NCBI GenBank assembly: GCA_964397465.1
Contig: CAYNIC010000011.1
Coordinates: forward strand, 3,503-67,502
DNA from: an uncultured Rhodospirillales bacterium
Lineage (GTDB): Bacteria > Pseudomonadota > Alphaproteobacteria > JAWKYA01
Direction of reading: 5' to 3'
DNA length: 64,000 nt
Shown here: positions 8,747 through 57,009 of the stretch, piece by piece
How positions within the stretch are numbered: position 1 is the first letter of the stretch
How the letters are laid out: every line of letters starts with the position of its first letter
Made by a program: the position numbers and the translations under genes
The notes under the pieces: model-generated
What the model saw: only the letters and a program-made list of their open reading frames with translations
The model's database searches: none
Told to the model about the DNA's origin: nothing

Positions 8747-8767
8747 TCGTTAGGCGAGCTTGATAAA

Positions 8768-33687: not shown

Positions 33688-33724
33688 GAAATTCCTTTCT
33701 AAGAGATCAAGAATAATCCCTACC

Positions 33725-35434: not shown

Positions 35435-35466
35435 AAAAATTCTCCTCAAGATGGGGTTAGAAAAAC

Positions 35467-37319: not shown

Positions 37320-37354
37320 GTCATGTCCTTTCGAGGGAAAACAAAGGCAAGAAA

Positions 37355-37585: not shown

Positions 37586-37594
37586 GGAACCTCC

Positions 37595-40087: not shown

Positions 40088-40111
40088 GAGAGTGTCTCCT
40101 TATAGAGGCGC

Positions 40112-42501: not shown

Positions 42502-42502
42502 C

Positions 42503-43069
42503 TCAGCCTCCTCCAGTCCAGCCGGTAAGATCAAATCCGCCGGCGGTTTCTTCCTGGGCGTCGATCAGACGGGCGCGGCGAAATTCTTCCTCGGCGGCAC
42601 GGGCCAAGGCTTCGGCCCGGGATGAATTCTCGGTCAAAGGAATGCAGAACTCGGCCGCCAGGCGCGCGATCAGCACATGATCAAAGAACGGCGGAAAATC
42701 CGCTTCGCCGGGGCGAAAAATATAGGTCAGGATCACTTCATCGGCGTGGGCGTGAAGCCGCCGCTCGGCGATGCGGTAGGTAAGCCCGCGCCCGCGACGG
42801 CCGTTACCGGCGGAAAGGGCGCGAAGATAATCGCCGGGCAATTGAAACGCATAGGCATAGTCGGCGGGGGGCGAGGCCGCCAAGGGCGCAAGCCGCCGTT
42901 GCGCCGTGGCGAAATTCCACGGATGGGCGGAGAGCAGGGCGTCCCGCGTCGACGGATAAAGCAGGCTGGCCACCTCGGCGGCAGCGGAGCCTTCGTCAAA
43001 TCCTAAAATAGGCGCGGCGCCGATTTTCACCAGCGCTCGGGCACAAAGTTGAATGGCGCTCAGAGCCAT
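42503..43069 (-). CDS. Adaptor / tail tubular-A-position protein
   Basis: ATG at 43069; 188 aa. N-terminus MALSAIQLCARALVKIGAAPI...HPWNFA resembles podovirus adaptor-type proteins. Synteny supports the call. Confidence 0.45.
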   Translation of the reverse strand: MALSAIQLCARALVKIGAAPILGFDEGSAAAEVASLLYPSTRDALLSAHPWNFATAQRRLAPLAASPPADYAYAFQLPGDYLRALSAGNGRRGRGLTYRIAERRLHAHADEVILTYIFRPGEADFPPFFDHVLIARLAAEFCIPLTENSSRAEALARAAEEEFRRARLIDAQEETAGGFDLTGWTGGG

Positions 43070-43152
43070 GGCTCGTTGCCTTTCCCATAAAAAAGCTCCG
43101 CGGCGATGAACCATCGCCGGCGGAGCCGATCACAACAGAGAAAATAGATTTA

Positions 43153-43410
43153 TTAGTCGGTGTTCACGCTGCCGACGGCGGTCATGTCGGCGACATCGAC
43201 CGTGCCGTTCTGGCTGGAAGCGATCAGAAGAATGCCGGCGCCGCCGTTGACATTGGCGAGAATCATATCGCCTTTGCGCAGCATATCTACGGCGGGATTA
43301 AAATAGCCGTTGGTATCGACGATGTCGGCGGTATCGGTCGAGGCATAATGCCAAAGGGTAAAGCCGTTGGCATAGGCCAGCACCGAAAGGTTTCTGGCAA
43401 GATAGGCCAT
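43153..43410 (-). CDS. Small capsid-associated hypothetical protein
   Basis: 85 aa, directly downstream of the capsid gene. Confidence 0.45.
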   Translation of the reverse strand: MAYLARNLSVLAYANGFTLWHYASTDTADIVDTNGYFNPAVDMLRKGDMILANVNGGAGILLIASSQNGTVDVADMTAVGSVNTD

Positions 43411-43448
43411 GAAGATCTCCTTTATCTCTTTAAGCTAAGGGTGAAATT

Positions 43449-44273
43449 TTACGCTTCGCTGCACGGCAGGGTGACAAGACCGGTGCCATCGACCAGCACC
43501 GCGCCCAAGGACAGCGAGCAGCTGACGAACCACGCGGCCCGATCGTTGTGATAGGCGATGTCGGTGTTGACTTCCGATCCCACCGCGAGGGCAAGGGCGG
43601 TCTTGTGCCACCAATGGCACAGGCGGTGACCATTGCCGTCGAGGCCAAGGCCGGAATGGGGCATCCACAAGGTTCCCAGCCAGCGCTTGGCCTGGGTGCC
43701 GCGCCAGGGCAGATCGTCGCTGCCGACATAATCGGCATTGGCGAATTCCTGGATCATCAAGAGATCGGACCATTGTTTCCATCCCACCACGGCGTAACGA
43801 TCTCCGTCATCGGGCACATCGTTGCCGCCCAGGATGCCGAAGGCCTCCAGCACCTTTTGTTTGGTGAGACCGCCGCTAACCGTCGGAGTCAGATTGGCCG
43901 AGGTGTTCATCTGCGCCAAAATCAGCTCGTCGGTTTTGCGGCCCAAGGCATAGGCGCCGGCATTGGCCACCACCGCCCGCTCTTCGTTCTCGGTCTTAAG
44001 TTCGTCCAGGGCGTCCACCCATTCGCCGGCATAGTAATCCGACAGAAAACATTCGATCGGCGCGTGATCGATGTTCATCACCGGCACCTTGCCGTGTCGC
44101 GCTTTGGTCGAAGCGCTGCCCTTGCCGACTTTTTGAAACACGGTGGAGGCGCCTTTAACGCTGCCCTTGGCGCGAACGCAAGGGCGGAGCTTGGCGCCCG
44201 TACGCTGATAGGCTTCGTGAACTTCCTTTTCGAACTGCTTGATGAAAGCAGCATCAATGGAGGGTTTATTCAT
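43449..44273 (-). CDS. Major capsid protein (putative)
   Basis: 274 aa, positioned after the scaffold-like gene. N-terminal FIKQFEKEVHEAYQ... pattern resembles small podovirus coat proteins. Confidence 0.65.
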   Translation of the reverse strand: MNKPSIDAAFIKQFEKEVHEAYQRTGAKLRPCVRAKGSVKGASTVFQKVGKGSASTKARHGKVPVMNIDHAPIECFLSDYYAGEWVDALDELKTENEERAVVANAGAYALGRKTDELILAQMNTSANLTPTVSGGLTKQKVLEAFGILGGNDVPDDGDRYAVVGWKQWSDLLMIQEFANADYVGSDDLPWRGTQAKRWLGTLWMPHSGLGLDGNGHRLCHWWHKTALALAVGSEVNTDIAYHNDRAAWFVSCSLSLGAVLVDGTGLVTLPCSEA

Positions 44274-44394
44274 GGTGATCCTTTCAGAAAAAATAAACGG
44301 TTGAGTCCGGCCACGGGTTATCCGCGCAGGGGCGGGCTTGCAGCCGGATGAAGGAAAAAGACGGGCCGCCGCAACGGTTGTCCGTAATTAAGAC

Positions 44395-45132
44395 TTATGA
44401 ACTGGGGTAAAGACGGCGGAAGCCCTCGCTGACCTCGGCCACAAAGGCGGGGTCTTTGTGCTTCCAATAGCGGGGATCGCGCATCATCTTGGTCAGATCC
44501 TCTTCGGTTAAACTTGCAACCGCGGTGCCGCCACCGCCAAGCCGCGGCGGCGATCCGCTTTGCATCATGGCGTGAAGCGCCAGAACGCCGTCGCTGGTCG
44601 AGGCCAAGGCGTCGAACACGTCGCGCGGCAGGTGGGCCGTGCCCCAGGCGTTGAGTTGCCGGGCGATTTCGCGCCATGCCGTATCGCCGCCGAAATGGGC
44701 GATCAGTCGCTCGCGCTGTTTTTGCGCCTCGAATTCCGACGCCAGATCGGTGATCGCCGGCAGCATGCGTTCGCCGGCGAGATCGTAAACCAGCTGAGCT
44801 TGGCGCGGCGTGAAGTGGGCCGCGTGCAGGCGACCGTTGACATCCGGATCAATGTCCAGAAAATCGGTGCTAAGATTGATCTCGTAAGCATCGGGTGTGT
44901 CGGGGATACCGAGCGCCCGGCGGAAGGCTGCGGTCTCCGTCTCGTCGGCATCATCTCGCGGCACCCGCACCATGGTCGATAGTTTTCGCTCCAGCTCCAA
45001 ATAGGATCGCGCCAGTTTCGCCACATCGGGCGCGCCGGTTTGCGGGTCCAAAAATTTCTGGGGAATTTGCACCGTGTCGGATGAAGGGGCGGCGGGCGTA
45101 TCCGATGGTGTGGTCAGTAAACTCTCGGTCAT
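44395..45132 (-). CDS. Scaffolding-like protein
   Basis: ORF trimmed to the ATG at 45132 after AAGGA, 5 nt below the portal stop. 246 aa, helical and acidic. Sits between the portal and capsid genes. Confidence 0.5.
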   Translation of the reverse strand: MTESLLTTPSDTPAAPSSDTVQIPQKFLDPQTGAPDVAKLARSYLELERKLSTMVRVPRDDADETETAAFRRALGIPDTPDAYEINLSTDFLDIDPDVNGRLHAAHFTPRQAQLVYDLAGERMLPAITDLASEFEAQKQRERLIAHFGGDTAWREIARQLNAWGTAHLPRDVFDALASTSDGVLALHAMMQSGSPPRLGGGGTAVASLTEEDLTKMMRDPRYWKHKDPAFVAEVSEGFRRLYPSS

Positions 45133-45136
45133 GGCA

Positions 45137-46669
45137 TTATCCTTTTGTCGACGAAAGGGTTTGCGCCTCAACAGAGGCAGGTAAAATTTCAGAAGAAATC
45201 GCTGCTGGAACATCGGGACGTAACAGGCTCGCCGGCAGGTCCAGCATCTTGGCGGCCCATCTGGCGGCGGCCGGCGCATCCAAGGTCGCGGCGGCGTCCG
45301 GCCCCAACTGCTTGGCGATGTCCAGCCACGACAAGGCGCCTTGCGCCTCCAACTGGGCTTGCCGCCGCGCCAAGGGCGATCGGTATTGCAAGGTGATGGT
45401 GCGACCATCCAAGGTCAGGTTCGGCAATTCGCCGCGCCGGGATAAAATCGCCAAGGCCCGCGCCACCAACGGCGTCAAAAGTTCGGCCTGCAGCCGGCCG
45501 TAGGTTGCGCCCAATAACCGCGCGGTCTCCGCCGCCCGGTGCAGAACTTCGGTTGCGGTCATGCCCGGCGTCGCCACACTTGCCAGGCGGTCGGTCAGCA
45601 GACTGGAGCGGATCGCTTGCCGTAGGGTGGCAAGAGTCAAATCCGAGACATTGAAATTTCCCGGCACCTGCAAGGGCGTCAGGCCCGATGAGCCGACCGC
45701 CTTGGGAATGATGGTGCCCGGCACCAACCTCACCGTCGCCGGATTTAAAACACCGTCGTCATCGGCCTGCCAAATGCCGGTGACGGCGATGGCGGCGTTT
45801 TTCAGCGTCAACTCAACCACCTTGTTGGCGGTTTTGATATCGGGCAATGCCTTCATCACCGGCGAGCGGCCATAGGCCTCGCCCGGCGCTTTCATCCAGC
45901 GAAACGACAAAAAGGGCGATTGATCCAATCGCGCCTTGGCCAAAAGATGCGGGCCGTTGAATTTCTCCGCACCGCCTTCCAACACCGCGACGTAATCGTA
46001 ACCGTTGCCGGTCTCGCGGGGGACCACCGCTTCGATCACCGTGTAAAGACGATCGCTGTCGGTTGCGGCGGAAGCGGGAATCTCCGCTGCGGGAAAGCGG
46101 CTGTGCAGTTGCAGCCGGCTCAACCGATTGCGACGATAGGCGATATCCAACCTTCCCTCGGCGCCTTCCTCCAACACCACATCCCACAACGGCACGGCGG
46201 CAAAGCGAAAGGCGCTGGGTTGTCCCGGGGCGGTTTCTTCAAAGGACAAACAAGCCGTGCCCGACACCACCAAATCCAGAAAGCATTGATGAATCTCCAC
46301 CGCAAAATTCGAGCGATCGAAATGCTGCTGCAGAATCTCGGCGGCGCGATCGAGTTTCGGCGCCAGGTCGCCGTGCAGGTGTTCGGGAATTTCCCGGCCG
46401 GGGGCAAAGCCGAACCATCTGGCCCAGGGCGGCGTCAGTTCAGCCAGCAAACTGGCCGCCAATTGATCCACCGCATCGGGGGCGGTGCCGTCGAACAACC
46501 GCTCGCGGCTGGCGGCGGATAGACTGGAGGGCCCCGCTCCGGCAAAGGGCGTCTCATCCCGCGACGGCAAACTGTAGGCATAGCAGTCGCGCCACACCGA
46601 CTCCCAGGCGCTGCGCTGCATCTTGGCGCGGTGAAACCGGGCCATCACGCTTTCCGGCGTCATGATCAC
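45137..46669 (-). CDS. Portal (head-to-tail connector) protein
   Basis: 510 aa. N-terminal RFHRAKMQRSAWESVWRDCYAYSLP resembles the T7-type connector family. Position is upstream of the scaffold and capsid genes. Confidence 0.7.
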   Translation of the reverse strand: MIMTPESVMARFHRAKMQRSAWESVWRDCYAYSLPSRDETPFAGAGPSSLSAASRERLFDGTAPDAVDQLAASLLAELTPPWARWFGFAPGREIPEHLHGDLAPKLDRAAEILQQHFDRSNFAVEIHQCFLDLVVSGTACLSFEETAPGQPSAFRFAAVPLWDVVLEEGAEGRLDIAYRRNRLSRLQLHSRFPAAEIPASAATDSDRLYTVIEAVVPRETGNGYDYVAVLEGGAEKFNGPHLLAKARLDQSPFLSFRWMKAPGEAYGRSPVMKALPDIKTANKVVELTLKNAAIAVTGIWQADDDGVLNPATVRLVPGTIIPKAVGSSGLTPLQVPGNFNVSDLTLATLRQAIRSSLLTDRLASVATPGMTATEVLHRAAETARLLGATYGRLQAELLTPLVARALAILSRRGELPNLTLDGRTITLQYRSPLARRQAQLEAQGALSWLDIAKQLGPDAAATLDAPAAARWAAKMLDLPASLLRPDVPAAISSEILPASVEAQTLSSTKG

Positions 46670-46884
46670 TCTCCCAATAAAATTTTGCGGGCGGGGATAA
46701 GGCGCGCCGATTTGCCGGCGGTAATGGCAGGCTGCTCCAGCACGCCGGTCAGTCCGGTTTTGACGGTGGTGGCAAGGCCGCGGCGAATCCGGCGGTGCGG
46801 GTGAAGATCTTCCTTCACCGCGGCGGATAGGGGCGGCGGTGCCGGAACCGGCGGTGGGGTGGGGGCGATAAAGCGGCTGGCCAT
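46666..46884 (-). CDS. Hypothetical Pro-rich 72-aa protein
   Basis: ATG at 46884 after GGGAGA. ATGA overlap with the portal start. Confidence 0.35.
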   Translation of the reverse strand: MASRFIAPTPPPVPAPPPLSAAVKEDLHPHRRIRRGLATTVKTGLTGVLEQPAITAGKSARLIPARKILLGE

Positions 46885-46993
46885 CAAGGATCTCCCTGAA
46901 GCAGGTGGAACGAACGGGACAAAGGGTGGAAAAAACAAAACCCGCCGCGGTTTCCCGGGGCGGGTGAGAAGAGGCGGAGTCATGGCCTCATGT

Positions 46994-47008
46994 GTTCCTA
47001 TATAGTTC
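46994..47008. promoter_or_regulatory. Alphaproteobacterial-type SOS (LexA) box GTTC-N7-GTTC
   Basis: GTTC ctatata GTTC read directly. Overlaps the -10 of the promoter listed next. Confidence 0.65.
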
Positions 47009-47027
47009 TCTTTTCAGTTCCTGTCAA
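46999..47027 (-). promoter_or_regulatory. Near-consensus sigma70-type promoter for the portal-to-holin genes
   Basis: The minus strand reads TTGACA (47027-47022), 17 nt, TATATA (47004-46999). Confidence 0.6.
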
Positions 47028-47109
47028 CGGTATTTTTTCTTAAAAAATGAAAAAGAAGCTGGCCGCCTGTGGGCAAGGTTTCCTTCCGGCTGAATCCCCA
47101 GCGTCTATT

Positions 47110-47562
47110 TCAAGAACGGCTTACCCGACCCGCGGGATTTAAAAGACGTCCCGCGTTCCTGTCCGTCAGGGATAAAAATAACCGCCATGGGGTCCAAATA
47201 AATCGGCGCCGCAGGTGCAAAATATTTTTTACCACGGCAACGCAGGTCATCGGCCGCAGCAGGTTAAGACAAGATCGATGGCGCCGCGGGGTGCGGGTCA
47301 TCGGCATCATCACGGGAATCGGCACCGCACCCTTTGCGGTATAGAATCGAATCATCTCCGCAACGGAGTAGGGAGGAAGGAGTTTGATCATCAGACGGCC
47401 GCACAGGGGATCCACCATGATCCATCCGCTGGCGATTCGATAAAGGATAAAGCAATGGCGGAAGCCTCGTTTCAACAGATAAAACCATGGAAATTCCAGC
47501 TCGCCGCGAAATACCACGATCGCCGTAACCCCGCGGCGCGGACGATCAGAGTCGGCGGTCAT
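47110..47562 (-). CDS. Hypothetical 150-aa protein
   Basis: The 244-aa track ORF is trimmed to the ATG at 47562, which overlaps the upstream stop (ATGA). No family recognised. Confidence 0.45.
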   Translation of the reverse strand: MTADSDRPRRGVTAIVVFRGELEFPWFYLLKRGFRHCFILYRIASGWIMVDPLCGRLMIKLLPPYSVAEMIRFYTAKGAVPIPVMMPMTRTPRRHRSCLNLLRPMTCVAVVKNILHLRRRFIWTPWRLFLSLTDRNAGRLLNPAGRVSRS

Positions 47563-47924
47563 CGGACGATTCCCTTGGCCCGCAGCGGCGGCGTCAAACG
47601 CTCTAACGCTTCGCGCCACAGCTTGGCGAAGTTCGCCTCTTCGCCCCGGGCATAGGGCGACGGAGCGCGGCCCATGCGGCCGTAGTGCATCAGGATTTTG
47701 ACATGAGCCCGGCGCAGGCGCCGTCGCTCGACCAGCCGCACCAGCTCGCGCACCACGTCGTCGGGCTCGCAGGGTTTGGGGGTGGATTTTCCCGCCTCGA
47801 ACCGGGCGCCGTCGGCGCGGGCGGTCAGGCAGGCGACGCACCAAAACCAGCAGGCTAAACTCGTCGGGAAAGGCTCCCCAATCGTTGTTCCCTTGCCGGT
47901 GGTGATAAGCTTCAACTGGCCCAT
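47559..47924 (-). CDS. Hypothetical 121-aa protein, first gene of the cluster (possible regulator)
   Basis: ATG at 47924 after AAGGGAG. Arg-rich helical C-terminal half. Confidence 0.45.
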   Translation of the reverse strand: MGQLKLITTGKGTTIGEPFPTSLACWFWCVACLTARADGARFEAGKSTPKPCEPDDVVRELVRLVERRRLRRAHVKILMHYGRMGRAPSPYARGEEANFAKLWREALERLTPPLRAKGIVR

Positions 47925-47969
47925 GGCTTTGCTCCCTTGAAGGGCTTTTTTCTCTCGCGGTAAACGAGT

Positions 47970-47984
47970 GTTCTATTATTGTTC
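47970..47984. promoter_or_regulatory. Second SOS (LexA) box GTTC-N7-GTTC in the divergent control region
   Basis: GTTC tattatt GTTC read directly. Confidence 0.6.
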
Positions 47985-48084
47985 GCTATTAGAGGGAGAG
48001 TCTATATGCACAAATACCCATGTCAAGCCTGAATCAGAATTTGATCCTAGTGACATTTTTCACCTGAATTGTGAAGGTGTTCCC

Positions 48085-48717
48085 ATGTTGAGACATGCGG
48101 ATATATGGCGGGGGATTGACCGTTTGGCTGCGACACATAATTTGTCGCCCTCGGGCTTGGCTCGAAAGTCAGGATTGGATCCCACCACCTTTAACAAATC
48201 AAAACGGGTTGCCCGGGATGGCAAGCCGCGTTGGCCGACGACGGAAAGCCTGGCGAAGATTCTGTCGGCCACCGGCGCCGGCATGAACGAATTCGTCTCA
48301 TTGATGAGCGAGACTCCCGGCACCTCGGTAACCCAGCGGATCCCGGTCATCGGCTATACCCAAGCGGGTCAGGCCGGTTACTTCGACGACGCCGGTTATC
48401 CCGCGGGCAAGGGCTGGGACGAGGTGGAGTTCCCCGATGTCGGCGATCCTCACGTTTATGCGCTGGAGATCAACGGCGACAGCATGATGCCGGTTTATCG
48501 CGACGGCGACGTGGTTGTGGTCTCGCCCCAGGCGCAGATCCGCCGCAACGACCGGGTGGTGCTGAAGACCGTCGAGGGCGAGGTGATGGCCAAGGTGCTC
48601 AGCCGCCGGTCGGCCAAGAAGATCGATCTGCATTCGCTCAACACCGATTTCCCCGATCGCAGCCTGGACAGCGACGACGTGCTGTGGATCGCGCGGATTA
48701 TCTGGGCCAGCCAATAG
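48085..48717 (+). CDS. HTH + S24 peptidase (CI/LexA-like self-cleaving) repressor
   Basis: ORF trimmed to the ATG at 48085 after GAAGGTG. N-terminal HTH (LSPSGLARKSGLDPTTFNKSKR), an Ala-Gly linker, and GDSMMP...K catalytic dyad. Confidence 0.8.
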   Translation: MLRHADIWRGIDRLAATHNLSPSGLARKSGLDPTTFNKSKRVARDGKPRWPTTESLAKILSATGAGMNEFVSLMSETPGTSVTQRIPVIGYTQAGQAGYFDDAGYPAGKGWDEVEFPDVGDPHVYALEINGDSMMPVYRDGDVVVVSPQAQIRRNDRVVLKTVEGEVMAKVLSRRSAKKIDLHSLNTDFPDRSLDSDDVLWIARIIWASQ

Positions 48718-48731
48718 TCTTAGCGCCGATT

Positions 48732-48874
48732 GATTCCGCGATTCCTGTCGCAAGATTCCATTCCTTAAATGCCGGAGTCCGACTCTTCTCCTAACTTGGG
48801 TATGAAGAGTCGAGATTGCTGTCGATTAGGAATCCTTGAATCGCCCCCGAATCTTCAATGAATCTTTCTGAATC
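48732..48874. repeat. Dense GANTC array: 11 sites in 143 bp; GATTC x3 left, GAATC x5 right, inverted repeat in the centre
   Basis: Sites counted by hand at 48732, 48740, 48754, 48775, 48781, 48807, 48830, 48838, 48849, 48860 and 48870. 9-bp inverted repeat CGACTCTTC (48780-48788) / GAAGAGTCG (48804-48812). Confidence 0.85.
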
Positions 48875-48952
48875 CCATTTCGGAGGCGACTAGCTGGCGC
48901 CGGTTGCGTAGCCGGCCTAGGATCGGTCGCCACCTTTAAAGAAAGATCCGCC

Positions 48953-49813
48953 ATGGCGAAGAGTCTAAGTAACGAGGATAATTGTCAGACCTTCGTCGAT
49001 GGCCGGTGGATCGCGGGCAATCCGCCGCTGATGCATGCTATGACCCATGCGGTGTGGTTGGGATCGGTGGTGTTCGACGGCGCGCGGGCCTTCGACGGCG
49101 TGGCGCCCGATCTTGATCTTCATTGCCATCGGGTCGTCAATTCGGCATCGGTGTTGGGCTTGGCGCCGACCCTGACCGCGACGGCGATCGAAGATCTGGC
49201 GCGGGACGGCATCAAAAGATTTGCGCCGAACACCCCGCTCTATATCCGGCCGATGTTCTTTGCCGAGGACGGGATGCTGGCGCCCGATCCCGCCACCACC
49301 AAATTCGCCCTGGTGATGTGGGAGGATCCCTTGCCGGCGCCGACCGGATTTTCCGCAATTGTCACACCGATGCGGCGCCCGCCGCCCGAAGCGGCGCCTT
49401 CGGAAGCCAAAGCGTCTTGTCATTATCCCAATCTGGGTCGCGCGGTGCGCTGGGCAAAGGAACGCGGCTTTGACAACGGCGTGGTATTGGATCCCGCCGG
49501 CAAGATCGCCGAATTCGCTTCATCGAATATTTTCTTCGTGCAGGACGGGGTGGTGGTGACGCCGGCGGCCAACGGCACTTTCCTGAATGGCGTCACGCGG
49601 CGCCGCGTGTTATCGCTGTTGCGCGCTGATGGCGTGAAGGTTGAGGAACGGGTAGTTGACCCGTCAGAGCTTGATCGCGCGTCCGAAGTTTTCTCCACCG
49701 GCAACTATGCCAAGGTCATGCCGGTGACGCGGATGAACGATCGCAGCCTGCAGCCGGGACCGCTGTTCCGCCGCGCCCGCGAGCTCTATTGGGGTTATGC
49801 ACATGGGAAGTAA
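48953..49813 (+). CDS. ilvE: Class IV aminotransferase (branched-chain amino acid aminotransferase-like)
   Basis: 286 aa. Fold-type IV pattern including the EAKASCHYPNLGRAVRWAKERGFDNGVVLD region. Confidence 0.7.
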   Translation: MAKSLSNEDNCQTFVDGRWIAGNPPLMHAMTHAVWLGSVVFDGARAFDGVAPDLDLHCHRVVNSASVLGLAPTLTATAIEDLARDGIKRFAPNTPLYIRPMFFAEDGMLAPDPATTKFALVMWEDPLPAPTGFSAIVTPMRRPPPEAAPSEAKASCHYPNLGRAVRWAKERGFDNGVVLDPAGKIAEFASSNIFFVQDGVVVTPAANGTFLNGVTRRRVLSLLRADGVKVEERVVDPSELDRASEVFSTGNYAKVMPVTRMNDRSLQPGPLFRRARELYWGYAHGK

Positions 49814-49829
49814 CGTATGAGAGGGAGTT

Positions 49830-50627
49830 ATGCCTTACGTACAGCGAGATAAAAAAGGAATTGTAACAGGGTTATTTGAACATAAATTACCAGAGGCTAC
49901 TATGGAATTTCTGGAAAAAGACGATCCGGAAATTAAAGACTTTTATGATCGATTTCCACTATCGCCTCAGATGATAGAGGCGCTTCGCCCTAAATCTACA
50001 AAAGAGTTACTCGAACAGCATCAAAAAATTGAAAAAGAATATAATCAACTTATAGAAGACCATAAAGCACTTCAAAATCTCATTATATCTTTATTAGGTG
50101 TATGGGCGGAAATGGAGACTAGCTTTGCTGGCTTACTAAATGTTCTTTTAACAGGAAGTAGAGAAAAATTGGCGTTTGCACTTTACTTTTCTATTCGAAA
50201 TTTTCAAACGCAAATGACGGTAATTCAAACACTTGGTGAAGTGCTTTTTCCTTCCGAAGAAAATTCAAAAAAAGTGTATAAAGAATGGGAGTCAGTTTTT
50301 AATAAAATTAAAAAGGAAGTACCTGAAATTCGAAACAGAATCGCTCACGGGCATATAGTCCAGTTCTTGCACGAGAAGAAACATATACGTGTTTTGCCGC
50401 CATTTTTTGATTTCATTAAAATAGAAAAAAGCAACGCAAAAGCTGAATTACCTGGAGTTGGACAAAACGAAATATACAAAAGTATAAAGGTAATAGGCCT
50501 AACTTCTCAGTTTGCCAATCGCTTGTCGCTTATTTTTAAGCGTTCTTTTGAAGGCGAGGCATTAGCACTTAAAGAAATTGATTTGGAGCTCAAAAGTTAT
50601 AAGGAAAATTTCAAAAATTTAAGATAA
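49830..50627 (+). CDS. Hypothetical protein with HEPN-like Rx4H motif
   Basis: 265 aa, strongly AT-rich and all-helical. The motif EIRNRIAHG sits at the end of a helical-bundle-like region. Start lies 17 nt after the ilvE-like stop, with RBS GAGGGAG. Confidence 0.5.
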   Translation: MPYVQRDKKGIVTGLFEHKLPEATMEFLEKDDPEIKDFYDRFPLSPQMIEALRPKSTKELLEQHQKIEKEYNQLIEDHKALQNLIISLLGVWAEMETSFAGLLNVLLTGSREKLAFALYFSIRNFQTQMTVIQTLGEVLFPSEENSKKVYKEWESVFNKIKKEVPEIRNRIAHGHIVQFLHEKKHIRVLPPFFDFIKIEKSNAKAELPGVGQNEIYKSIKVIGLTSQFANRLSLIFKRSFEGEALALKEIDLELKSYKENFKNLR

Positions 50628-50765
50628 CAGATGATATAAACATCAGCACCGCCATACGTCGTGTCAATGTCCTGAGATCGACTATCCGCCGGTGCCCTTC
50701 AGCAATAAACCCTTTGCCAGCCTCAGCCCGCTTAAGTAGCATTGCGCGGAAGGGATTTTCGTCTC

Positions 50766-51779
50766 ATGACGCTAAATTATCTCGAACTGATTATCGGCAG
50801 TCTGTGCTTAATCATCATCGGCTTCTGCGCCGGTGTTGTTATCCATGCCGGCGAGATCATTCCCTATCAGCCGCTGATCGTCGGTTTGATCGCGCTGGGC
50901 GGCGCGGTGATCGCCTATGTCGGAACGCTGAGGGCATCCCACGCCCATCTGCAGGTCGCCGAGAAGAACATCAAGCATCAGCAAGAGCAGAAGGCGCTGG
51001 ACTCTATCAACGAGAAACAGGAAATCGCGTCCTTTGCGCAAAAGCTGCTGCTGGAAATATTCAATTATCTGGTGGCGACAAGCCTTCTTTCCCGGGACCA
51101 GGCCATCGATGAAAAATGGCTCAACCTCTTGACCCTGAAAGACATGATAGAGCGATATGTCACCAGGATGGAGGACGCCTCGGATAAATTCATGAAACTG
51201 GACATTAACAACTCCAGCCGAATTCATCTGATCATTCGCGGCTTGAAAAACATCCTGCCCGAGGCGGAGACGATCCAAAATATAAATCAGCTGATGAAAA
51301 CCGGCGACAATGGCGCGATCTGCGCCCAGTATATCAACCGCACCTATGAATATATCGGGACATTCTTGAACGAGAACGTTACGGTACATGACATCCTTAA
51401 CGACTTGGATGTCATCTCCAAGGGCAATGTGGATCAATCAAGGGCGTATTCGATCTTGACGACGGATCTGAGAAAAATCATCAACGAGAATCTGAGGCTT
51501 ATTCAATCCGCCGTCACCGCGGGCCGCTATCTCGAGATCGATTATCCGCCGGGGCGCCGGGTGGTGGCGCCGCATATTTTGGGGCGCACCAGCAGTGGCG
51601 AGCTGGTGCTCAGCGTCTATCAAGTCAACGGCGCCAGTGATGCTGGCGAGACGGTGGGGTGGAAGACTTTCCATCTCGATCGCATTTTGGGCGTAAGGGT
51701 GTTGGATAAACGCTTTTCACCGCAGGGCGATTACAATCCCCACGATCCGAAAATACCCGAAGTTATCGTCAAGGTATAA
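50766..51779 (+). CDS. Two-TM membrane protein with C-terminal WYL-like domain
   Basis: ATG at 50766. TM helices LELIIGSLCLIIIGFCAGVVI and PLIVGLIALGGAVIAYVGTL. C-terminus YLEIDYPPGRRVVAPHILGR...LVLSVYQ...WKTFHLDRILGVRVLDKRF fits the WYL pattern. Confidence 0.55.
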   Translation: MTLNYLELIIGSLCLIIIGFCAGVVIHAGEIIPYQPLIVGLIALGGAVIAYVGTLRASHAHLQVAEKNIKHQQEQKALDSINEKQEIASFAQKLLLEIFNYLVATSLLSRDQAIDEKWLNLLTLKDMIERYVTRMEDASDKFMKLDINNSSRIHLIIRGLKNILPEAETIQNINQLMKTGDNGAICAQYINRTYEYIGTFLNENVTVHDILNDLDVISKGNVDQSRAYSILTTDLRKIINENLRLIQSAVTAGRYLEIDYPPGRRVVAPHILGRTSSGELVLSVYQVNGASDAGETVGWKTFHLDRILGVRVLDKRFSPQGDYNPHDPKIPEVIVKV

Positions 51780-51803
51780 GCGCCGCAGCGCGCCTGTTGC
51801 AGG

Positions 51804-51875
51804 TGCGGATCACTGATCAACAGTTTTCATCGCAGCTAAAGGACCATCTACGCGATGTGATTGTCACTCCCATCA
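51804..51875. repeat. Direct repeat R1 (~72 bp)
   Basis: Hand alignment with 53176-53246 gives about 56 of 72 identical with one gap. The best block is TGCGGAT.ACTG.TCAACAGTTTT. Confidence 0.75.
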
Positions 51876-51903
51876 GCTCTGCAAATAGGTCTATACGGTT
51901 CAA

Positions 51904-52623
51904 TTAATTTGTCGTTTGAAAGCCACGAATCGCCCAGAGTATTGACCATCCAAATATAAAGATAATCGTTGGGGGAATGATAAACATACCCAGGATAAAT
52001 AATAAACTTTTGTCAGCTATAGATCGATATTCTTTGGCATGGTTTTTTGCGGCATCAATTTTGTCTAACCGGCTTACTTTAGATTTGTAGATTTCTGCAG
52101 GGTTACGGCCGCAAGGAAGATCTATGATCTGTCTTGATTTTTCTGCCAGATTCTTATTCAGAATATTTCTAGCATCTTGAATAGATAATGACCTAAAATC
52201 AACAATAGTAACCCAAGCTTCTCGTTTAAAAGCTTCCACTATAGCTTCCAGCTGTTCATCAGATAATTTTTCAAAGTCAAACTTAGTTTGGGATGACGGA
52301 TTTTGTTTCTCCGTTTGTCGTTCTGGTGGGGGAAAATTTGATTCTTGTATTTGATTAAGATCTATCCAGCCGTTCTCCATAAAATAGAAGATAGGCTCAG
52401 TGCGGCATTTAGTTCTATAATACTTTCCTACTTCCGGTTCAGGCAGAGAGTCTGTCTCTGATTGTAGAAAAGATATTTCGCGATCTGCTTCTGCAGAACG
52501 CCTTATATTATTAGTATATTCCGATTTCAATTCGGTTAATACCAGCCAAGCTACCAGCGAAACCCATATTGCACTAATTATCAGCCATAAACGAAAAAGC
52601 CCTCTTCCAAATCTAGACATCAT
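51904..52623 (-). CDS. Hypothetical membrane protein with N- and C-terminal TM helices
   Basis: 239 aa, AT-rich. Third gene of a translationally coupled trio. Confidence 0.5.
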   Translation of the reverse strand: MMSRFGRGLFRLWLIISAIWVSLVAWLVLTELKSEYTNNIRRSAEADREISFLQSETDSLPEPEVGKYYRTKCRTEPIFYFMENGWIDLNQIQESNFPPPERQTEKQNPSSQTKFDFEKLSDEQLEAIVEAFKREAWVTIVDFRSLSIQDARNILNKNLAEKSRQIIDLPCGRNPAEIYKSKVSRLDKIDAAKNHAKEYRSIADKSLLFILGMFIIPPTIIFIFGWSILWAIRGFQTTN

Positions 52624-52813
52624 ACTTTAGGCACTCTTCTGCAGAAGCAACTTCAGATTTTAATTTTGAATAATCTATATTTTCACCCCAAGGTTTATCG
52701 TCTCGAGCGTTCTTTAAGGCGTCGCTGCAAAGATCTTTATTGCTCAAATTCGTAAATGGATATGAATAGAATTTTGGTGGGTAGTCTGGAATAGTAACTT
52801 TCACACATTTCAT
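52613..52813 (-). CDS. Hypothetical 66-aa protein
   Basis: Overlaps both neighbours (ATGA with the upstream gene, 11 nt with the downstream gene). Confidence 0.4.
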   Translation of the reverse strand: MKCVKVTIPDYPPKFYSYPFTNLSNKDLCSDALKNARDDKPWGENIDYSKLKSEVASAEECLKYDV

Positions 52814-53046
52814 TGTTTGATCTTTCCATTATTTTTTATAATTTGGTTGGGATCGAATCCCTCCGCCACAAGAAGTGAGCTAAGTTGTTCACCAAAACTT
52901 TTACTGTCTTCATATGCGAAGAGAGGCTTTTGAGTCTTATCAGATACAGATATATAAACGCGCCCTTGACCCGCATGCTCAAAATCAAAGTTGTAGCCAA
53001 GGTCATGGAGCGCAATGAGCATTCTGGCGTTGTTTGTATTGCTCAT
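52810..53046 (-). CDS. Hypothetical 78-aa protein
   Basis: First gene of the trio. Preceded by a very AT-rich ~125-bp leader/promoter region. Confidence 0.45.
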   Translation of the reverse strand: MSNTNNARMLIALHDLGYNFDFEHAGQGRVYISVSDKTQKPLFAYEDSKSFGEQLSSLLVAEGFDPNQIIKNNGKIKQ

Positions 53047-53175
53047 TAGGTTATGCTTCCCTTTTATTTCTATTTAAAAGGGTATCATTAAATATATATA
53101 ATTTTAAATAGTTTTAAAAACACCTGACTTTTCAGTATCTTCTGCCTAGAAATCATTTTTAGCGCATTGTGTGGT

Positions 53176-53246
53176 TGCGGATAACTGGTCAACAGTTTTT
53201 ACCGAAATTGAAAGCCATCCGCGCGAAGTGACGGTCGCTCCCATCA
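53176..53246. repeat. Direct repeat R2 (~71 bp)
   Basis: See R1. Confidence 0.75.
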
Positions 53247-53284
53247 CTGCGCGGATTTAACCGGCGTCTCAGGTCAACCCGGCG

Positions 53285-53494
53285 CTAACACGTCGCGTAG
53301 GTCGGGCTTTGCGCCGCCTCAAACACAAACATCACTTCCGACGGAATAATGTCATGGGGCAACTGGCCCTTTTCCTGTGCTGCTTTCAACACAAGATCCT
53401 TCACATCGCGTCGCATCGTGCTGTTGAGGGTTTGAAAACCGCCGACCCCATAAGGGCCAACTGTTTTTCCGTGGTATTTGATAAATACGTTCAT
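53285..53494 (-). CDS. Hypothetical 69-aa protein (the open frame continues upstream to 53755)
   Basis: The ATG at 53494 has a strong RBS, GGGAGGGAG. The 156-aa track ORF adds a basic, AT-rich N-terminal extension of doubtful coding status. Confidence 0.4.
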   Translation of the reverse strand: MNVFIKYHGKTVGPYGVGGFQTLNSTMRRDVKDLVLKAAQEKGQLPHDIIPSEVMFVFEAAQSPTYATC

Positions 53495-53803
53495 CGTAAC
53501 TCCCTCCCGCAGTAAACGGTTGTCCCCGTTTCCCGGTATTTTTTTAAGTGCAGTTACTTTTTTTCTAGGCCATATCGCGCGTTTAAGGGCGCCTCGGCCG
53601 TATGATATCCGATCTAGAATACGCAGCATTATAGGCACTGCATGATCGGGTCCACAAGCAAAGATCGTAAGCTCATGATTACGTTGAGCAATAAAAATAG
53701 TCGGGCGACGTTTTATTAACCAATTATTTTTTCTGAAGAAAAATAGCGTGGCCATACGCTAATTTTAGCGACGTAAATACCTCGGAAATACTTGGTTTTT
53801 ACG

Positions 53804-54181
53804 TTACGAGCCGACAATCACCACCACATAGCCGTCGGGATCACGCAGCCAGCACTCATGGTGGCCGGCATTGGGGTTAAAGCGGCGTTCCTCGATGATC
53901 TCGATCTTCAATCCCTTGGCGCGTTTGATCACCGCATCGATAGCGTCGGTGTGAAACCACAACAAAACGCCATAGCCGTGGGGCGCCGCATCGGGATCGC
54001 CCAAATTGGGATGATCGTGATCACCCCAATGATGGAGCTGCAGGATCATCTCGCCGGTTGCCGGATCGATCAGTTGTTCGTACTCATCCCCGCCATGACC
54101 GCTGATGCAGCCGAGAAGTTTTTGATACCAGCGGCTGCTGGCGGGAACGTCTTTGACGGCGATCAGTGGTTGCGGTTTCAT
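53804..54181 (-). CDS. VOC (glyoxalase/bleomycin-resistance) family protein
   Basis: 125 aa with a typical beta-alpha-beta-beta-beta module pattern (VKDVPASSRWYQKLLG...WLRDPDGYVVVI). ATGA overlap with the helicase gene. Confidence 0.8.
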   Translation of the reverse strand: MKPQPLIAVKDVPASSRWYQKLLGCISGHGGDEYEQLIDPATGEMILQLHHWGDHDHPNLGDPDAAPHGYGVLLWFHTDAIDAVIKRAKGLKIEIIEERRFNPNAGHHECWLRDPDGYVVVIVGS

Positions 54182-57009
54182 GTCTTGTCCTCGATCGATG
54201 ATGTCTCATGTGGCGCTCGCTCGTGCACAAAAAATTCCCGCACGGCGGTGACCGCCTCGGCCAACCCAAGCCGCGAGATCGCAACGCCTTCGGGAAAGGC
54301 GGTGGTAAGGCGGCTGGGCAGCCGTGAATCAAGCAACACAAACACACCGCGATCGGTGGTGCGGCGGATCAACCGCCCGAAGGCTTGGCGCAGTCGCAGC
54401 CGGGTCAGCATATCGGCATAGGCCGCCTTGCCGCCGGGAAAAACCTCGGCCCGCGCCTTGTACAAAATATCCGGCCGCGGCCACGGCACCCGGTCGAACA
54501 CCACCAGACGCAAGGAACGCCCCGGTACATCGACGCCGTCGCGCACCGCATCGGTCCCGAGTAGACAGGCGTCTTCCTCGGCACGGAAAATATCGATCAA
54601 GGTGGCGGTGTCGACGCCGTCGACGTGTTGCGCGTAGAGGGGAATATTTGCTGCCTCCAACGGCGCTGCGATCCGCGCTTGTACCTCGCGCAGTCGGCTG
54701 ATGGCGGTGAACAGGCCAAGCCCGCCGCCGTGGGAGGCTTCGAACAGGGCGCGATAGGCCGCCGCCATCTGTCCCGGATCCTTGCCATCGATGTTTTTCA
54801 CGATCAGCACCCGGGTTTGACGGGGATAATCAAAGGGTGAGGGCACGCGAACCAGCAAGGCCGGCCTGGCGAGATGCCGCGTGCCGGTACGCGCCTCGGC
54901 GGCGATCCAATCTTCATCAACGCGGCCGGTGCGATCGGCCAAGGTCGCCGAGGTAATCACCCCGCCATGGACGCCGGCTTCGATCGCCTGGGCGAAGGGC
55001 TGCATCGGATCGCGCCAATGACGGTAAAGACCGATGTCGATGTCGCGGCCCTCGATCCGGTCGACCGCGCACCAATCGACGAACTCGGGCGGCGTTTCGC
55101 TGCGCAGACTTTTGAGCATCGATCGCCAGGCGGCGATGGGGGCAAGGGCTCGGTGGCTAAGCCCGCGCACCACCGCTTCGATGCGGATGCGGGTCGCGAC
55201 GTCGATCTCGCCGGCCTCGCTGCCGGTCAGCCGCGCGGCGATGGCGGTGCGAAGCTGGGTCAAAGGTTCCTCCAACCGCGCCAAGGCAAGATCAAGCGCC
55301 GTCGCCGCCTCCAGCAGGCCGTCAACCGGATCGGTGGTGGGCGCTTCGAGGCCATAAGGACCATCCCGATCGGCGACCCGGGCGTAAACCTGGGTGCGAA
55401 TATGCGCCAGGAATACTTCGGTCGGTCCGCGCGGTGCATCGTCGGCCAGGCGTTTGATCCACCCGTCACCGGGAAGCGCGCGGGCGGAGTCCAGCGCATT
55501 GCTCAACGCCACCTCCGCCGCGGTATTGCCGGCGGCAAGATCTTCGGCGCGGCGCTTCAAGCCGCGGGCACGGCCCCGTCCACCCTCGGCACCCAACAAC
55601 CAGCGGCGAAGTTCGGCGGCTTCGATTCCGGAGAGCGCGGCCGAGAAGGCGCTATCGGCGGCATCAAACAAATGATGACCTTCATCGAACACGATCCGTG
55701 TCGGCAATTGACCGTCTTCGCCGCGCGTCGCACTGATCAAGGTGAGGGCATGGTTCGCCACCACCAGTTTCGCCCGGGCGGCCCTGCGGATGGTGCGCTC
55801 GATGAAACACTTATTATAGTGCGGGCAGGCGGCGTGGATGCATTCGCCGCGTCGATCGGCCAGGCTAAGGCTGCGCCGTGTTCCCAAGAGATGCACCAAC
55901 CATCCGGGAAAATCACCGCCGATCAAATCACCGTTGCGCGTCGCGCCGGCCCAGCGGGTGATAAGACCCAAAGCCACCGCATCGGAGACGCGGCCGCCGG
56001 GTCCAAGCGAGATCAATCCGCGCACCGCCTCTTCCAAATTCAGCAGGCACAGATAATTCTCTCGGCCCTTGCGCACCACGGCGCGCAAGGATTTTTCCAC
56101 CGGATCGGGGTAAAGCCGATCAAGCTCGCTATCCAATTGGTGTTGCAGGTTGCGGGTAAAGGTCGACAGCCACACTGTGCCGTCGTTCTTCTCCGCCCAC
56201 AGACTGGCGGGGGCGATATAGCCCAAGGTCTTGCCGACACCGGTGCCGGCTTCGGCCAGGATCACCGTCGGTGCCGCCAGGGCCGGCGGCGGTTGAAACG
56301 CGGCGCTTAACGCTGCGGCGTAGTCGGCTTGCGGCGCACGCACCTCCGCATCCTTGCCCAGCAGCTCGGCCAGGCGCCGCGTGGCCTCGATCGGGGAAAC
56401 ACCGATCTGTCCGGGCGGCGGGGGCGGTTCGTGCTCGGCGATCTCGGGCAGACGGCGCCATACTTCAAATCCGGAGACATGTCCCGACGGTGCTGCATCG
56501 GCGGGTGAAGATTTCACCCGGCCGTGATCCAGCGCTTGAAGGACCCAGGGTCCCCAACTCCACCCGCCGCGCTCCATGGCGGCGGCAAGATCGATCATGT
56601 CGCGCCGCTCGGCAAAGGAGTGAGTTTGCGCCAATTCGGTTAAGAGCAGGCGCGTAATCTCGATCAAGCTTAAGGCTTCGCGTGCAGGCGTCGACGGCGG
56701 CGGCTGCTTCATCGCCATGGCCAATCCCCGCGGTGTCGACAAGGCGAAGTTGGCGGGACGCACGAAGGCGAAGAGTTCCAAAACATCAAGCGCGGGAAAA
56801 CTGTCGATCCCCAACCGCCGGGCTGTCGCCAGGCGGTGGCATAGAATGGGGACGAGGCCGGCATCAACTCTTAATGCGGCGTCGCCATGGCTGAGGGCTT
56901 CGATCGTTCCGTCGGAAGATAACAGCACGGCATCCCGCGCCGAGGCCACCAAGACAGGTGCATCGGGCAAAGATATATCAGGGGAAGGGACGTGGTCTGG
57001 CGCGCGCAT
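54178..57009 (-). CDS. DinG/XPD-family ATP-dependent DNA helicase with N-terminal extension
   Basis: AEAGTGVGKTLGY Walker A, Fe-S Cys cluster (C..HAACPHYNKC), FDEGHHL DEAH-type box, and C-terminal helicase motifs; 943 aa. Confidence 0.85.
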   Translation of the reverse strand: MRAPDHVPSPDISLPDAPVLVASARDAVLLSSDGTIEALSHGDAALRVDAGLVPILCHRLATARRLGIDSFPALDVLELFAFVRPANFALSTPRGLAMAMKQPPPSTPAREALSLIEITRLLLTELAQTHSFAERRDMIDLAAAMERGGWSWGPWVLQALDHGRVKSSPADAAPSGHVSGFEVWRRLPEIAEHEPPPPPGQIGVSPIEATRRLAELLGKDAEVRAPQADYAAALSAAFQPPPALAAPTVILAEAGTGVGKTLGYIAPASLWAEKNDGTVWLSTFTRNLQHQLDSELDRLYPDPVEKSLRAVVRKGRENYLCLLNLEEAVRGLISLGPGGRVSDAVALGLITRWAGATRNGDLIGGDFPGWLVHLLGTRRSLSLADRRGECIHAACPHYNKCFIERTIRRAARAKLVVANHALTLISATRGEDGQLPTRIVFDEGHHLFDAADSAFSAALSGIEAAELRRWLLGAEGGRGRARGLKRRAEDLAAGNTAAEVALSNALDSARALPGDGWIKRLADDAPRGPTEVFLAHIRTQVYARVADRDGPYGLEAPTTDPVDGLLEAATALDLALARLEEPLTQLRTAIAARLTGSEAGEIDVATRIRIEAVVRGLSHRALAPIAAWRSMLKSLRSETPPEFVDWCAVDRIEGRDIDIGLYRHWRDPMQPFAQAIEAGVHGGVITSATLADRTGRVDEDWIAAEARTGTRHLARPALLVRVPSPFDYPRQTRVLIVKNIDGKDPGQMAAAYRALFEASHGGGLGLFTAISRLREVQARIAAPLEAANIPLYAQHVDGVDTATLIDIFRAEEDACLLGTDAVRDGVDVPGRSLRLVVFDRVPWPRPDILYKARAEVFPGGKAAYADMLTRLRLRQAFGRLIRRTTDRGVFVLLDSRLPSRLTTAFPEGVAISRLGLAEAVTAVREFFVHERAPHETSSIEDKT

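Follow-up and report, generated by a model that had tools for sequence, protein, structure and literature searches.

The direct repeats around an AT-rich gene trio in this strain are best described as an ordinary, neatly documented recombination scar, and the operon between them was found in this strain only. The repeated element, termed R, is an ordinary spacer, normally single-copy, that separates two convergent conserved genes and derives from the decayed tail of a gene. We consider it rather likely that an AT-rich module, which brought a promoter, three ORFan genes and a diverged R of its own, entered the chromosomal R by a single crossover.

The locus and the gene trio

The features of the locus within the window (the whole stretch of DNA analyzed, 64 kb) are given below.

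48953 to 49813, plus strand: class IV aminotransferase gene, the conserved left flank (Pfam Aminotran_4, E=1e-45).
49819 to 50691, plus strand: first strain-specific insertion, absent from L032, L033, L035, L038, and L043.
50742 to 51779, plus strand: conserved gene whose product is membrane-anchored and has a WYL-like domain at its C-terminus; 345 aa when read from TTG (337 aa in the JGI call).
51681 to 51779, plus strand: C0, the own tail of the intact WYL-like gene, RILGVRVLDKRFSPQGDYNPHDPKIPEVIVKV and stop.
51788 to 51875, plus strand: R1, putative attL-like hybrid copy and WYL-like tail relic; far-left edge host-like, remainder apparently brought by the module.
51904 to 52623, minus strand: third gene of the trio, a 239-aa two-TM protein.
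52613 to 52813, minus strand: second gene of the trio, a 66-aa ORFan.
52810 to 53046, minus strand: first gene of the trio, a 78-aa protein predicted to be soluble with an alpha-beta3-alpha fold.
53047 to 53161, minus strand: AT-rich leader of the module (23.5% GC) with a promoter-like site for the trio.
53160 to 53260, plus strand: R2, putative attR-like copy; from the core rightwards apparently the original R of the host, 90% identical to R of L032.
53285 to 53494, minus strand: conserved 69-aa gene, convergent with the WYL-like gene and forming the right flank of R in relatives.
53804 to 54181, minus strand: glyoxalase/VOC gene, the conserved right flank; it overlaps the stop of a DinG-like helicase gene (54178 to 57009).

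The 345-aa protein matched the PADLOC WYL profile (E=4e-7), while its match to Pfam PF13280 (E=0.016, 15.6 bits) fell under the gathering score of 21.8 bits, and we therefore call it WYL-like. The aminotransferase gene adjoins the WYL-like gene in L032, L033, L035, L038, and L043, with its stop about 80 nt away. In this strain the first insertion lies between the two. It carries a 265-aa ORF (49830 to 50627, 35.6% GC) with an Rx4H motif in EIRNRIAHGH, and at its end a 22-nt fragment of a WYL-like gene (50674 to 50695, repeat family D5), which reads EIDYPP and matches 51534 to 51555 at 20 of 22 positions. The variable site adjoins a T7-like structural gene cluster.

The module spans 1,372 bp, and the cassette at 51876 to 53161 has a GC content of 36.7% compared to 57.4% for the window. 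The leader holds a predicted minus-strand promoter-like site, TTTAAA-16-TATATT, at 53118 to 53091. Within the trio the 78-aa and 66-aa frames overlap as ATGA, and the 66-aa and 239-aa frames by 11 nt. The 239-aa protein was predicted to have long hydrophobic helices at both ends (AF2 helices 3 to 59 and 175 to 234; pLDDT 74). An earlier sequence-only reading had described the very AT-rich promoter-like leader, three minus-strand ORFs of 78, 66, and 239 aa, and one TM helix at each end of the largest product, without recognizing a family for any of the three; all of this was borne out. None of the three proteins matched a Pfam, PADLOC, NCBIfam, or PHROG family, and in the same databases none showed homology to a known toxin, antitoxin, or Abi family. 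For the 78-aa protein, comparison of the predicted fold gave only generic alpha-beta3-alpha matches. At the level of the fold this protein resembles Gp1.2 and Acb4.

Of 1.84 billion representatives, a family search with the 239-aa protein returned 57 at E<=1e-3, and all of these matched at both ends. They share an N-terminal RGLFRLW...W and a C-terminal PP...F..G...W..RGF signature, and the 239-aa protein appears to be a distant member of this uncharacterized small two-TM protein family; no Pfam family was found for any of 39 members. Among approximately 15 billion proteins the trio proteins were singletons, occurring on one to two contigs each, all of the same strain. Searches against phage and plasmid records, with blastn for the cassette and tblastn for the 239-aa and 78-aa proteins, gave no match. 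The trio is predicted to be an accessory operon encoding a small soluble protein, a small protein and a two-TM protein. That it forms a phage-related defense or counter-defense module is a guess that we make with low confidence.

Repeats, empty sites and the WYL-like gene tail

Alignment of R1 (51804 to 51875) with R2 (53176 to 53246) gave 56 identical positions over 72 and 71 nt with a single 1-nt gap, a divergence of 23%, and the exact count agrees with the approximate 56 of 72 positions first noted for the direct repeats. The likeness runs about 16 nt further to the left, to 51788 and 53160 (64 of 88 positions), and the repeat starts are spaced 1371-1372 nt apart. The longest common block, TGCGGATnACTGnTCAACAGTTTT, comprises 24 nt with two mismatches and contains a longest perfect run of 11 nt; it is not conserved in empty sites. 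When each repeat half was searched with up to three mismatches allowed, the R1 and R2 sites were the only ones found within the window, and 100 shuffles gave no matches. Two independent assemblies, JGI 3300013121 and Logan SRR34704531, show the identical arrangement at 99.97-100% identity, which excludes an assembly artifact. Contigs of the strain in the source metagenomes were all 99.7-100% identical and break in AT-rich stretches.

Four lineages carry the same locus, consisting of the aminotransferase, the TM/WYL-like gene, the 69-aa gene and the glyoxalase gene. Their WYL-like orthologs have protein identities of 96% (L032-L034), 87% (L041-L046), 73% (L035-L037), and 44% (L038-L039). In L032-L039 and L041-L046 the next feature after the WYL-like gene is the 69-aa gene (104 aa in L035-L037) or the contig end, and the trio is present in none of them. 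The 69-aa gene was called to the right of R in L028-L030, L032, L033, L038, and L041-L044, and as a 104-aa gene in L035. Different deletions of the WYL-like gene were found in L028, L030, and L038. Wherever the spacer could be read (L032-L035, L038, L039, L041, and L043) it contained exactly one R.

The extra DNA of this strain begins and ends inside the repeats, and the alignments to relatives break within R1 and R2. Positions 7927-9088 of L032 align to 50692-51859 of the window, and positions 9055-10415 to 53198-54555. Both alignments cover R of L032, so that its single R overlaps both R1 and R2. Direct repeats thus lie at the exact edges of DNA absent in relatives, with one copy at the empty site, as in attL/attR-type sites. 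This is also the answer to the strain comparison proposed in the sequence-only reading, since all relatives recovered with the locus lack the trio and have one R at the repeat boundary. That reading had further considered that the trio might be a core set of genes in relatives without repeats; the trio was found in no relative.

A third, older copy of the repeat sequence is the 3' end of the intact WYL-like gene itself (51681 to 51779). R is collinear with, and significantly similar to, the C-terminal codons of this gene from the LDRI motif to the stop, and is a relic of its 3' coding end (the last 30 codons or so), starting at the RI of LDRI and including a GC-rich hairpin that probably serves as a terminator. 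The relic peptide reads RIVWLRITDQQFSSQLKDHLRDVIVTPISSANRSIRFN. R1 is one open frame, RLLQVRITDQQFSSQLKDHLRDVIVTPISSANRSIRFN and stop, ending at 51908, while R2 reads RIVWLRITGQQF, then a 1-nt frameshift, then FTEIESHPREVTVAPITARI and stop. Compared to the intact WYL-like tail, R1 scored 42, a value reached by 1 of 5000 shuffles. Among the 127,906 48-mers of the window the best non-self matches to the intact tail were R1 (29/48) and R2 (27/48).

Two relatives, L030 and L038, connect R with the gene more directly, since remnants of the WYL domain physically run on into R there. Up to the stop codon, the remnant of L030 is collinear with the C-terminus of the WYL-like protein (score 141; shuffle mean 20), and R2 compared to this remnant scored 59, which none of 5000 shuffles reached. 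The L038 relic, FYRDHIIHIALLNKKFSL followed by a stop and PSYNPRDP..., scored 41, again with none of 5000 shuffles as high. The similarity between R1 and R2 is accounted for by common descent from a coding tail.

Proposed entry of the module and rival explanations

The two repeats relate differently to the R of the closest relative. The right part of R2 is identical to R of L032 at 45 of 50 positions (90%), which points to a host-derived R2. The right part of R1 matches at only 37 of 52 (approximately 71%) and is no closer to the R of any other relative, which suggests that it came in with the module. On the left side L032 has GCCT in common with R1, and ATAAC and TTTACCG in common with R2. 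Half of each copy therefore looks host-derived and half element-derived, at a resolution set by few informative sites. Based on the difference in GC content and on its singleton proteins, the module is best read as foreign to the strain. Since its R is homologous to the host R, the most probable source of the module is the equivalent locus in a diverged relative.

The preferred single-crossover reading would place the exchange near the left end of R, at approximately 51797-51811; this position is approximate because informative positions are few and the relative is 84-93% identical around R. Campbell-type integration would then give two attL/attR-like hybrids, with R1 composed of the host left edge and the module R, and R2 of the module left edge and the host R. 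The donor, the recombination pathway and a circular intermediate are inferred, as we found neither a circular form nor a donor locus, nor another site that is occupied. The capture route would probably have been general or short-homology recombination and not a dedicated cassette recombinase. Alternatively, another lineage may have given rise to the whole structure, which then reached this strain through recombination in its flanks. There was no support for a sharp recombination-tract boundary where the aminotransferase gene meets the WYL-like gene, as the identity to L032 drops gradually on approaching R from either side, from 100% to 84-88%. Divergence from L032 in the flanks was 1-12% per 250-500-nt window and 16% in the last 112 nt abutting R1. 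As R1 and R2 differ by 23% compared to 1-12% for these flank windows, R1 is not a recent in-place tandem duplicate of R2.

An unlikely alternative is that R is the attachment site of a site-specific system and that an integrase-less cassette, similar to a CIME or an integron cassette, was moved in trans by a recombinase whose gene lies elsewhere in the genome, with C0, R1, and R2 recording repeated integrations into the WYL-like tail. The direct repeats lie exactly at the insertion edges, the best-conserved 24-nt block is where the crossover maps, and the layered tails C0, R1, and R2 look like those of elements that insert at the 3' end of a gene with a replacement tail. In R2 the core has an inverted partner (GCGGATAACTGGTCAA ... 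TTGAAAGCCATCCGC), and the 11-nt perfect run between R1 and R2 is too short for efficient RecA-dependent recombination, which also counts against the single-crossover reading. However, no integrase (IntI included), transposase, or recombinase family was present among the called genes of the window. The core block carries deletions and substitutions in the empty sites of L032, L041, and L035, the inverted partner has degenerated in R1, and neither the 64 kb nor three collections yielded further copies.

R also lacks the attC R''/R' boxes. When R1 and R2 were read on both strands for RYYYAAC/GTTRRRY, no pair was properly placed: GTTGACC, GTTGATC, and GTTATCC fail RRRY, and the sole GTTAAAT/ATTTAAC is confined to R2, beyond the part that is repeated. 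An integron attC site was rejected on this basis and because R1 is not foldable. A dif/Xer (IMEX) site was rejected as well: GGTGCGGATCA resembles a XerC arm at 9 of 11 positions, and no XerD arm TTATGTTAAAT follows it at the right spacing. It is quite improbable that the WYL-like tail and R form a dedicated attachment site of an unrecognized integrase-less cassette family moved in trans, with C0, R1, R2, and the WYL-like fragment of the other insertion as footprints of repeated captures that built a small defense-gene array.

We find it similarly doubtful that the R1-trio-R2 structure is ancestral and that homologous deletion between R1 and R2 removed the trio from the relatives, leaving one hybrid R. 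The left of R in L032 resembles R1 and its right resembles R2, exactly as such a deletion would give. Against this, independent losses would be needed in at least four lineages (44-96% protein identity) and also in L028 and L030, the trio has a strongly AT-rich composition and encodes proteins confined to one strain, and the right half of R1 is at most approximately 71% identical to the R of any relative.

Selection on a functional RNA or terminator closing the minus-strand units could in principle keep R1 and R2 alike, and we regard this as very unlikely. Each copy lies 3' of a minus-strand unit, and folding of the R2 minus strand gives two hairpins (z = -3.98). A GC-rich hairpin in R2, ATCCGCGC (53217-53224) ... 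GCGCGGAT (53249-53256), has an 8-bp stem kept in 6 of 8 R copies. The stem is however broken in R1, which folds no better than shuffles (z = +0.33 for the minus and -1.3 for the plus strand), and no compensatory changes were seen at any stem pair. The terminator scan called neither copy, and descent from the coding tail already accounts for the likeness. Rfam and tRNA/tmRNA scans found nothing, which speaks against R being a known RNA or an att site of the tRNA type. That R is a dispersed REP/MITE-like repeat present twice by chance is extremely improbable. R is short and intergenic with a palindrome in one copy. Nevertheless, it occurs only twice in the window and at a fixed orthologous position in all relatives, and searches for its core pattern across 185,579 species genomes, JGI metagenomes and IMG/VR gave only chance matches without extended similarity. 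A looser hairpin pattern hit 74 loci in viral contigs, none truly similar to R or to the island proteins.

The repeats had been read from the sequence alone as recombination or insertion scars, or as cassette-boundary sites of an unidentified mobilization mechanism. The single R without the trio in relatives and the extra DNA bounded inside the repeats agree with the former. The latter finds no support: R is a decayed gene tail without attC-type boxes and its hairpin is lost in R1, no recombinase was found in the window, and the genomic, metagenomic and viral collections scanned for patterns yielded no further copies. The layout of ORF(s) and repeat was correctly seen as to positions, while the two positions differ in origin: R2 follows the 69-aa gene because this is the ancestral place of R, and R1 follows the trio because a separate copy of R came in with the module.

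Comparison with known elements

Elements that integrate into gene 3' ends and supply a replacement tail include phage 21 and e14 in icd and tRNA-targeting islands. The present locus is similar in having strain-specific DNA between diverged gene-tail direct repeats, a single copy in the empty sites of relatives, and hybrid copies. It differs in that the module is only 1.37 kb, with no integrase in it or in the window, and in that the target R is a non-coding relic downstream of an intact tail, so that nothing is restored. CIMEs are cis-mobilizable att-flanked islets without recombination genes that are mobilized in trans. The module resembles them as a small recombinase-less element with att-like direct repeats in one orientation; unlike them it has no known cognate ICE or integrase, its putative core is not conserved in empty sites, and no evidence of excision was found.

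With integron cassettes and CALINs the locus shares the ORF(s)-and-repeat layout, small AT-rich ORFans, a repeat 3' of the genes and a crossover at the gene-distal end of the repeat. It lacks their RYYYAAC/GTTRRRY boxes and IntI, R1 is not a foldable imperfect palindrome, the module appears to carry its own promoter, and there are two sites only, one of which is the ancestral intergenic region. The likeness to Campbell-type single-crossover integration lies in a homologous segment duplicated around an insert of foreign composition. It extends to the variability of the locus, as seen in the WYL-like deletions of L028, L030, and L038 and the second insertion in this strain. Here, however, the homologous stretch is very short, with 86 nt, and diverged (77%), and donor and intermediate were not observed.

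Current concepts are left unchanged by these observations unless a dedicated recombinase turns up. The locus points to an ORFan trio that includes a member of an uncharacterized two-TM family, to a clade-conserved membrane-anchored WYL-like protein, and to a variable site. The repeat can be traced to a gene tail duplicated at least twice, which warns that "novel cassette repeats" beside small ORFs may be relics of neighboring genes. Altogether, the locus is a clean small-scale case of accessory-gene entry into a conserved site, in which the empty and the occupied site as well as the hybrid repeats can be seen.

Repeats R1 and R2 and the corresponding sites in relatives

R1 and R2, the direct repeats on either side of the trio, lie in a low-GC island (about 49.8-53.8 kb) bordered on the left by a class IV aminotransferase gene and on the right by genes for a glyoxalase and a DinG-like helicase. 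From left to right the island contains a 265-aa ORF, a 345-aa WYL-like gene, R1, the trio, R2, and a 69-aa gene convergent with the WYL-like gene. The GC content is 36.7% in the cassette (trio and leader) and 57.4% in the window. At its N-terminus the 345-aa protein has TM helices, and at its C-terminus a WYL-like domain that matched PADLOC WYL at E=4e-7 and, below threshold, Pfam at E=0.016.

Features of the island
49819-50691, second strain-specific insertion relative to the closest relative, L032, with the AT-rich 265-aa ORF
50742-51779, membrane-anchored WYL-like gene
51681-51779, C0, the WYL-like gene's own 3' tail
51804-51875, R1; similarity begins about 16 nt further left, at 51788
51904-52623, minus strand, 239-aa ORF of the trio
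53047-53161, leader of the trio
53176-53246, R2; similarity begins about 16 nt further left, at 53160

Alignment reproduced the repeat positions and the 56/72 match of the sequence-only reading (56 identities in an alignment of 72/71 nt with a single 1-nt gap; 64/88 with the leftward extension). Its description of the three minus-strand ORFs and of how they overlap was confirmed, and its AT-rich leader was measured at 23.5% GC. When the window was searched with up to 3 mismatches, either half of the repeat matched at R1 and R2 only, and shuffled sequence gave 0 matches. Two independent assemblies show the R1-trio-R2 layout at 99.97-100% identity, which excludes an assembly artefact.

Exact-protein look-ups returned the same strain only, and relatives were reached via homologues of the glyoxalase and the WYL-like protein.

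Loci of relatives, with the state of the WYL-like protein or gene and of R
L032, L033, L034: protein 96% identical; one R; no trio; no 265-aa ORF
L041-L046: protein 87% identical; one R; no trio
L035-L037: protein 73% identical; one R; no trio
L038, L039: protein 44% identical; one R; no trio
L028/L029, L030: gene partially deleted; one R adjoining the 69-aa gene

Where the WYL-like gene is intact or nearly so (four lineages), the gene order is aminotransferase, WYL-like, spacer, 69-aa, glyoxalase, with a spacer of about 105-185 nt. By blastn, L032 positions 1-7920 align to 41892-49812 of the window (99.1% identity), 7927-9088 to 50692-51859, and 9055-10415 to 53198-54555; the window therefore has two insertions relative to L032. 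One is a 1,372-nt unit with both ends inside R1 and R2, and the single R of L032 overlaps with both. The earlier interpretation of the repeats as insertion scars was thus right, since empty sites hold one R and no trio, and the extra DNA ends inside the repeats.

The right edge of the other insertion is a 22-nt fragment of a WYL-like gene (50674-50695, reading EIDYPP) that matches 51534-51555 at 20/22 positions. The 265-aa ORF has an EIRNRIAHGH motif (Rx4H, HEPN-like) and weak matches to DUF6548 and a PADLOC HEPN profile. Across 41892-54555 identity to L032 falls gradually from 100% (43.4-46.9 kb) to 84-88% on either side of R; sequence close to R thus evolves or recombines more quickly than sequence further away.

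R as a relic of the WYL-like gene tail

Multiple alignment identified R as an orthologous spacer in every lineage, with a conserved GC-rich inverted repeat (ATCCGCGC...GCGCGGAT). The R stretch of L030 is in frame with a WYL-domain remnant, LSTYQLEGASESDEIIRWKMFYLDRITYVALLGTKFSPQLDYHPRDLKIARLRARI followed by a stop, which aligns collinearly to the 345-aa protein's C-terminal end as far as the stop codon (score 141; shuffle mean 20). The L038 relic reads FYRDHIIHIALLNKKFSL, stop, PSYNPRDPEFLAIPARI, stop (score 41, reached by 0/5000 shuffles). On the plus strand R1 is a single open frame, RLLQVRITDQQFSSQLKDHLRDVIVTPISSANRSIRFN and a stop, and R2 reads RIVWLRITGQQF, slips by 1 nt in a T-run and continues as FTEIESHPREVTVAPITARI to a stop. 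R1 scored 42 against the intact tail (RILGVRVLDKRFSPQ...), a value reached by 1/5000 shuffles. R2 scored 59 against the L030 remnant (0/5000) and 26 against the intact tail alone (139/5000), and its link to the intact tail therefore runs through L030 and is not direct. At the DNA level, a 48-mer starting at the intact gene's RI codons (51681) was compared with all 127,906 window 48-mers. The two best non-self matches were R1 (29/48) and R2 (27/48), and only four 48-mers in the window reached 26. The window therefore contains three gene-tail copies in the same orientation: the functional C0, R1, and R2. The first tail duplication is old, since C0 plus R is common to the window, L032, L041, and L035.

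The WYL-like gene is kept beside the 69-aa gene across a clade, yet several lineages show it in decay: the L028 copy is split and truncated, about 55 codons remain in L030, and the L038 copy lacks the WYL-like domain. All three retain R, the tail relic, despite this decay. Because the internal deletions of the gene differ between L028, L030, and L038, and a fragment of a WYL-like gene lies at the edge of the other insertion, the locus is a site of recurrent rearrangement among diverged alleles, with the fragments as scars.

Proposed integration of the trio and alternative explanations

The right part of R2 matches the R of L032 at 45/50 positions (90%), that of R1 at 37/52 (71%), and R1's right part agrees with R2 at 41/54. 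On the left side, GCCT is common to L032 and R1, and ATAAC and TTTACCG are common to L032 and R2. R1 and R2 thus show the attL/attR pattern, in which R1 joins a host left edge to a foreign R, and R2 a foreign left edge to the host R. The exchange point lies at about 51797-51811, beside the best-conserved block. R1 and R2 differ by 23%, while the flanks differ from L032 by 1-12% per 250-500-nt window (16% in the last 112 nt abutting R1), ruling out R1 as a recent local duplicate. R1 therefore arrived with the module, which must have carried an R homologue; this implies that the module most likely came from the equivalent locus of a diverged relative.

In the simplest route, a circular form of the module would have recombined with the chromosomal R by one crossover. 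The perfect identity common to R1 and R2 is short for RecA, which would suit a dedicated site-specific recombination system. Such a system is disfavoured, however: the window's genes include no integrase, transposase or other recombinase family, the presumed core is not conserved in empty sites and carries deletions there, and attC boxes are absent. Nor did RNA structure support it, as R1 folds no better than shuffles and the conserved stem is broken in R1 and lacks covariation. Neither the window nor three collection-wide pattern scans yielded further R copies. The window has no tRNA genes or Rfam matches. Alternatively, the relatives could have lost the trio by deletion between R1 and R2, which would yield the same hybrid R. 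This requires several independent losses and is a poor match for the trio's foreign composition and singleton status.

The trio and neighbouring phage-like genes

None of the three trio proteins matched Pfam, PADLOC, NCBIfam or PHROGs. When about 15 billion proteins were clustered at 90%, each remained a singleton. The 239-aa protein has distant relatives only (57 representatives at E<=1e-3). Together with P0122-P0177 it forms an unannotated family of small two-TM proteins (about 100-280 aa) with a conserved N-terminus (W.RGLFRLW...W), a hypervariable middle, a conserved C-terminus (PP...F..G...W..RGF), and invariant G8, R11, W13, W20, W230, and G234. Among 39 scanned members, 0 had a Pfam match at a level suggesting membership. 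From context, our guess for the trio is a role in phage-related defence or counter-defence.

The leader contains a strong promoter-like site on the plus strand (53073-53102, TTTAAA-18-TATAAT, 10/12) and I4, an AT-rich inverted repeat of 18 nt (53062-53119). Both face R2, not the trio, and run antisense to the 69-aa gene. A 15-kb cluster at 33725-48717 encodes T7-like virion, packaging, and lysis functions (portal, scaffold, capsid, tail tubular A/B, a fibre-like 830-aa protein, endolysin, large terminase at 35467-36960, and a holin with a GTA_holin_3TM match). It is adjoined by a divergent S24/LexA-like repressor gene, and it showed no genes for replication, RNA polymerase or integrase. Its identity is 98-100% in L032 and about 80% in L038, a more distant relative, so the cluster may be domesticated or defective, not an active prophage. 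Directly after its holin gene lies a RelA_SpoT-domain gene (32386-33750), small alarmone synthetase-like and called as 433 or 319 aa.

R1 and R2 do not represent a new class of cassette site, as the cassette-boundary interpretation had proposed. They are relics of the neighbouring gene's tail, duplicated by the integration of a small foreign operon, and R1-trio-R2 adds one more example to a known type of event.
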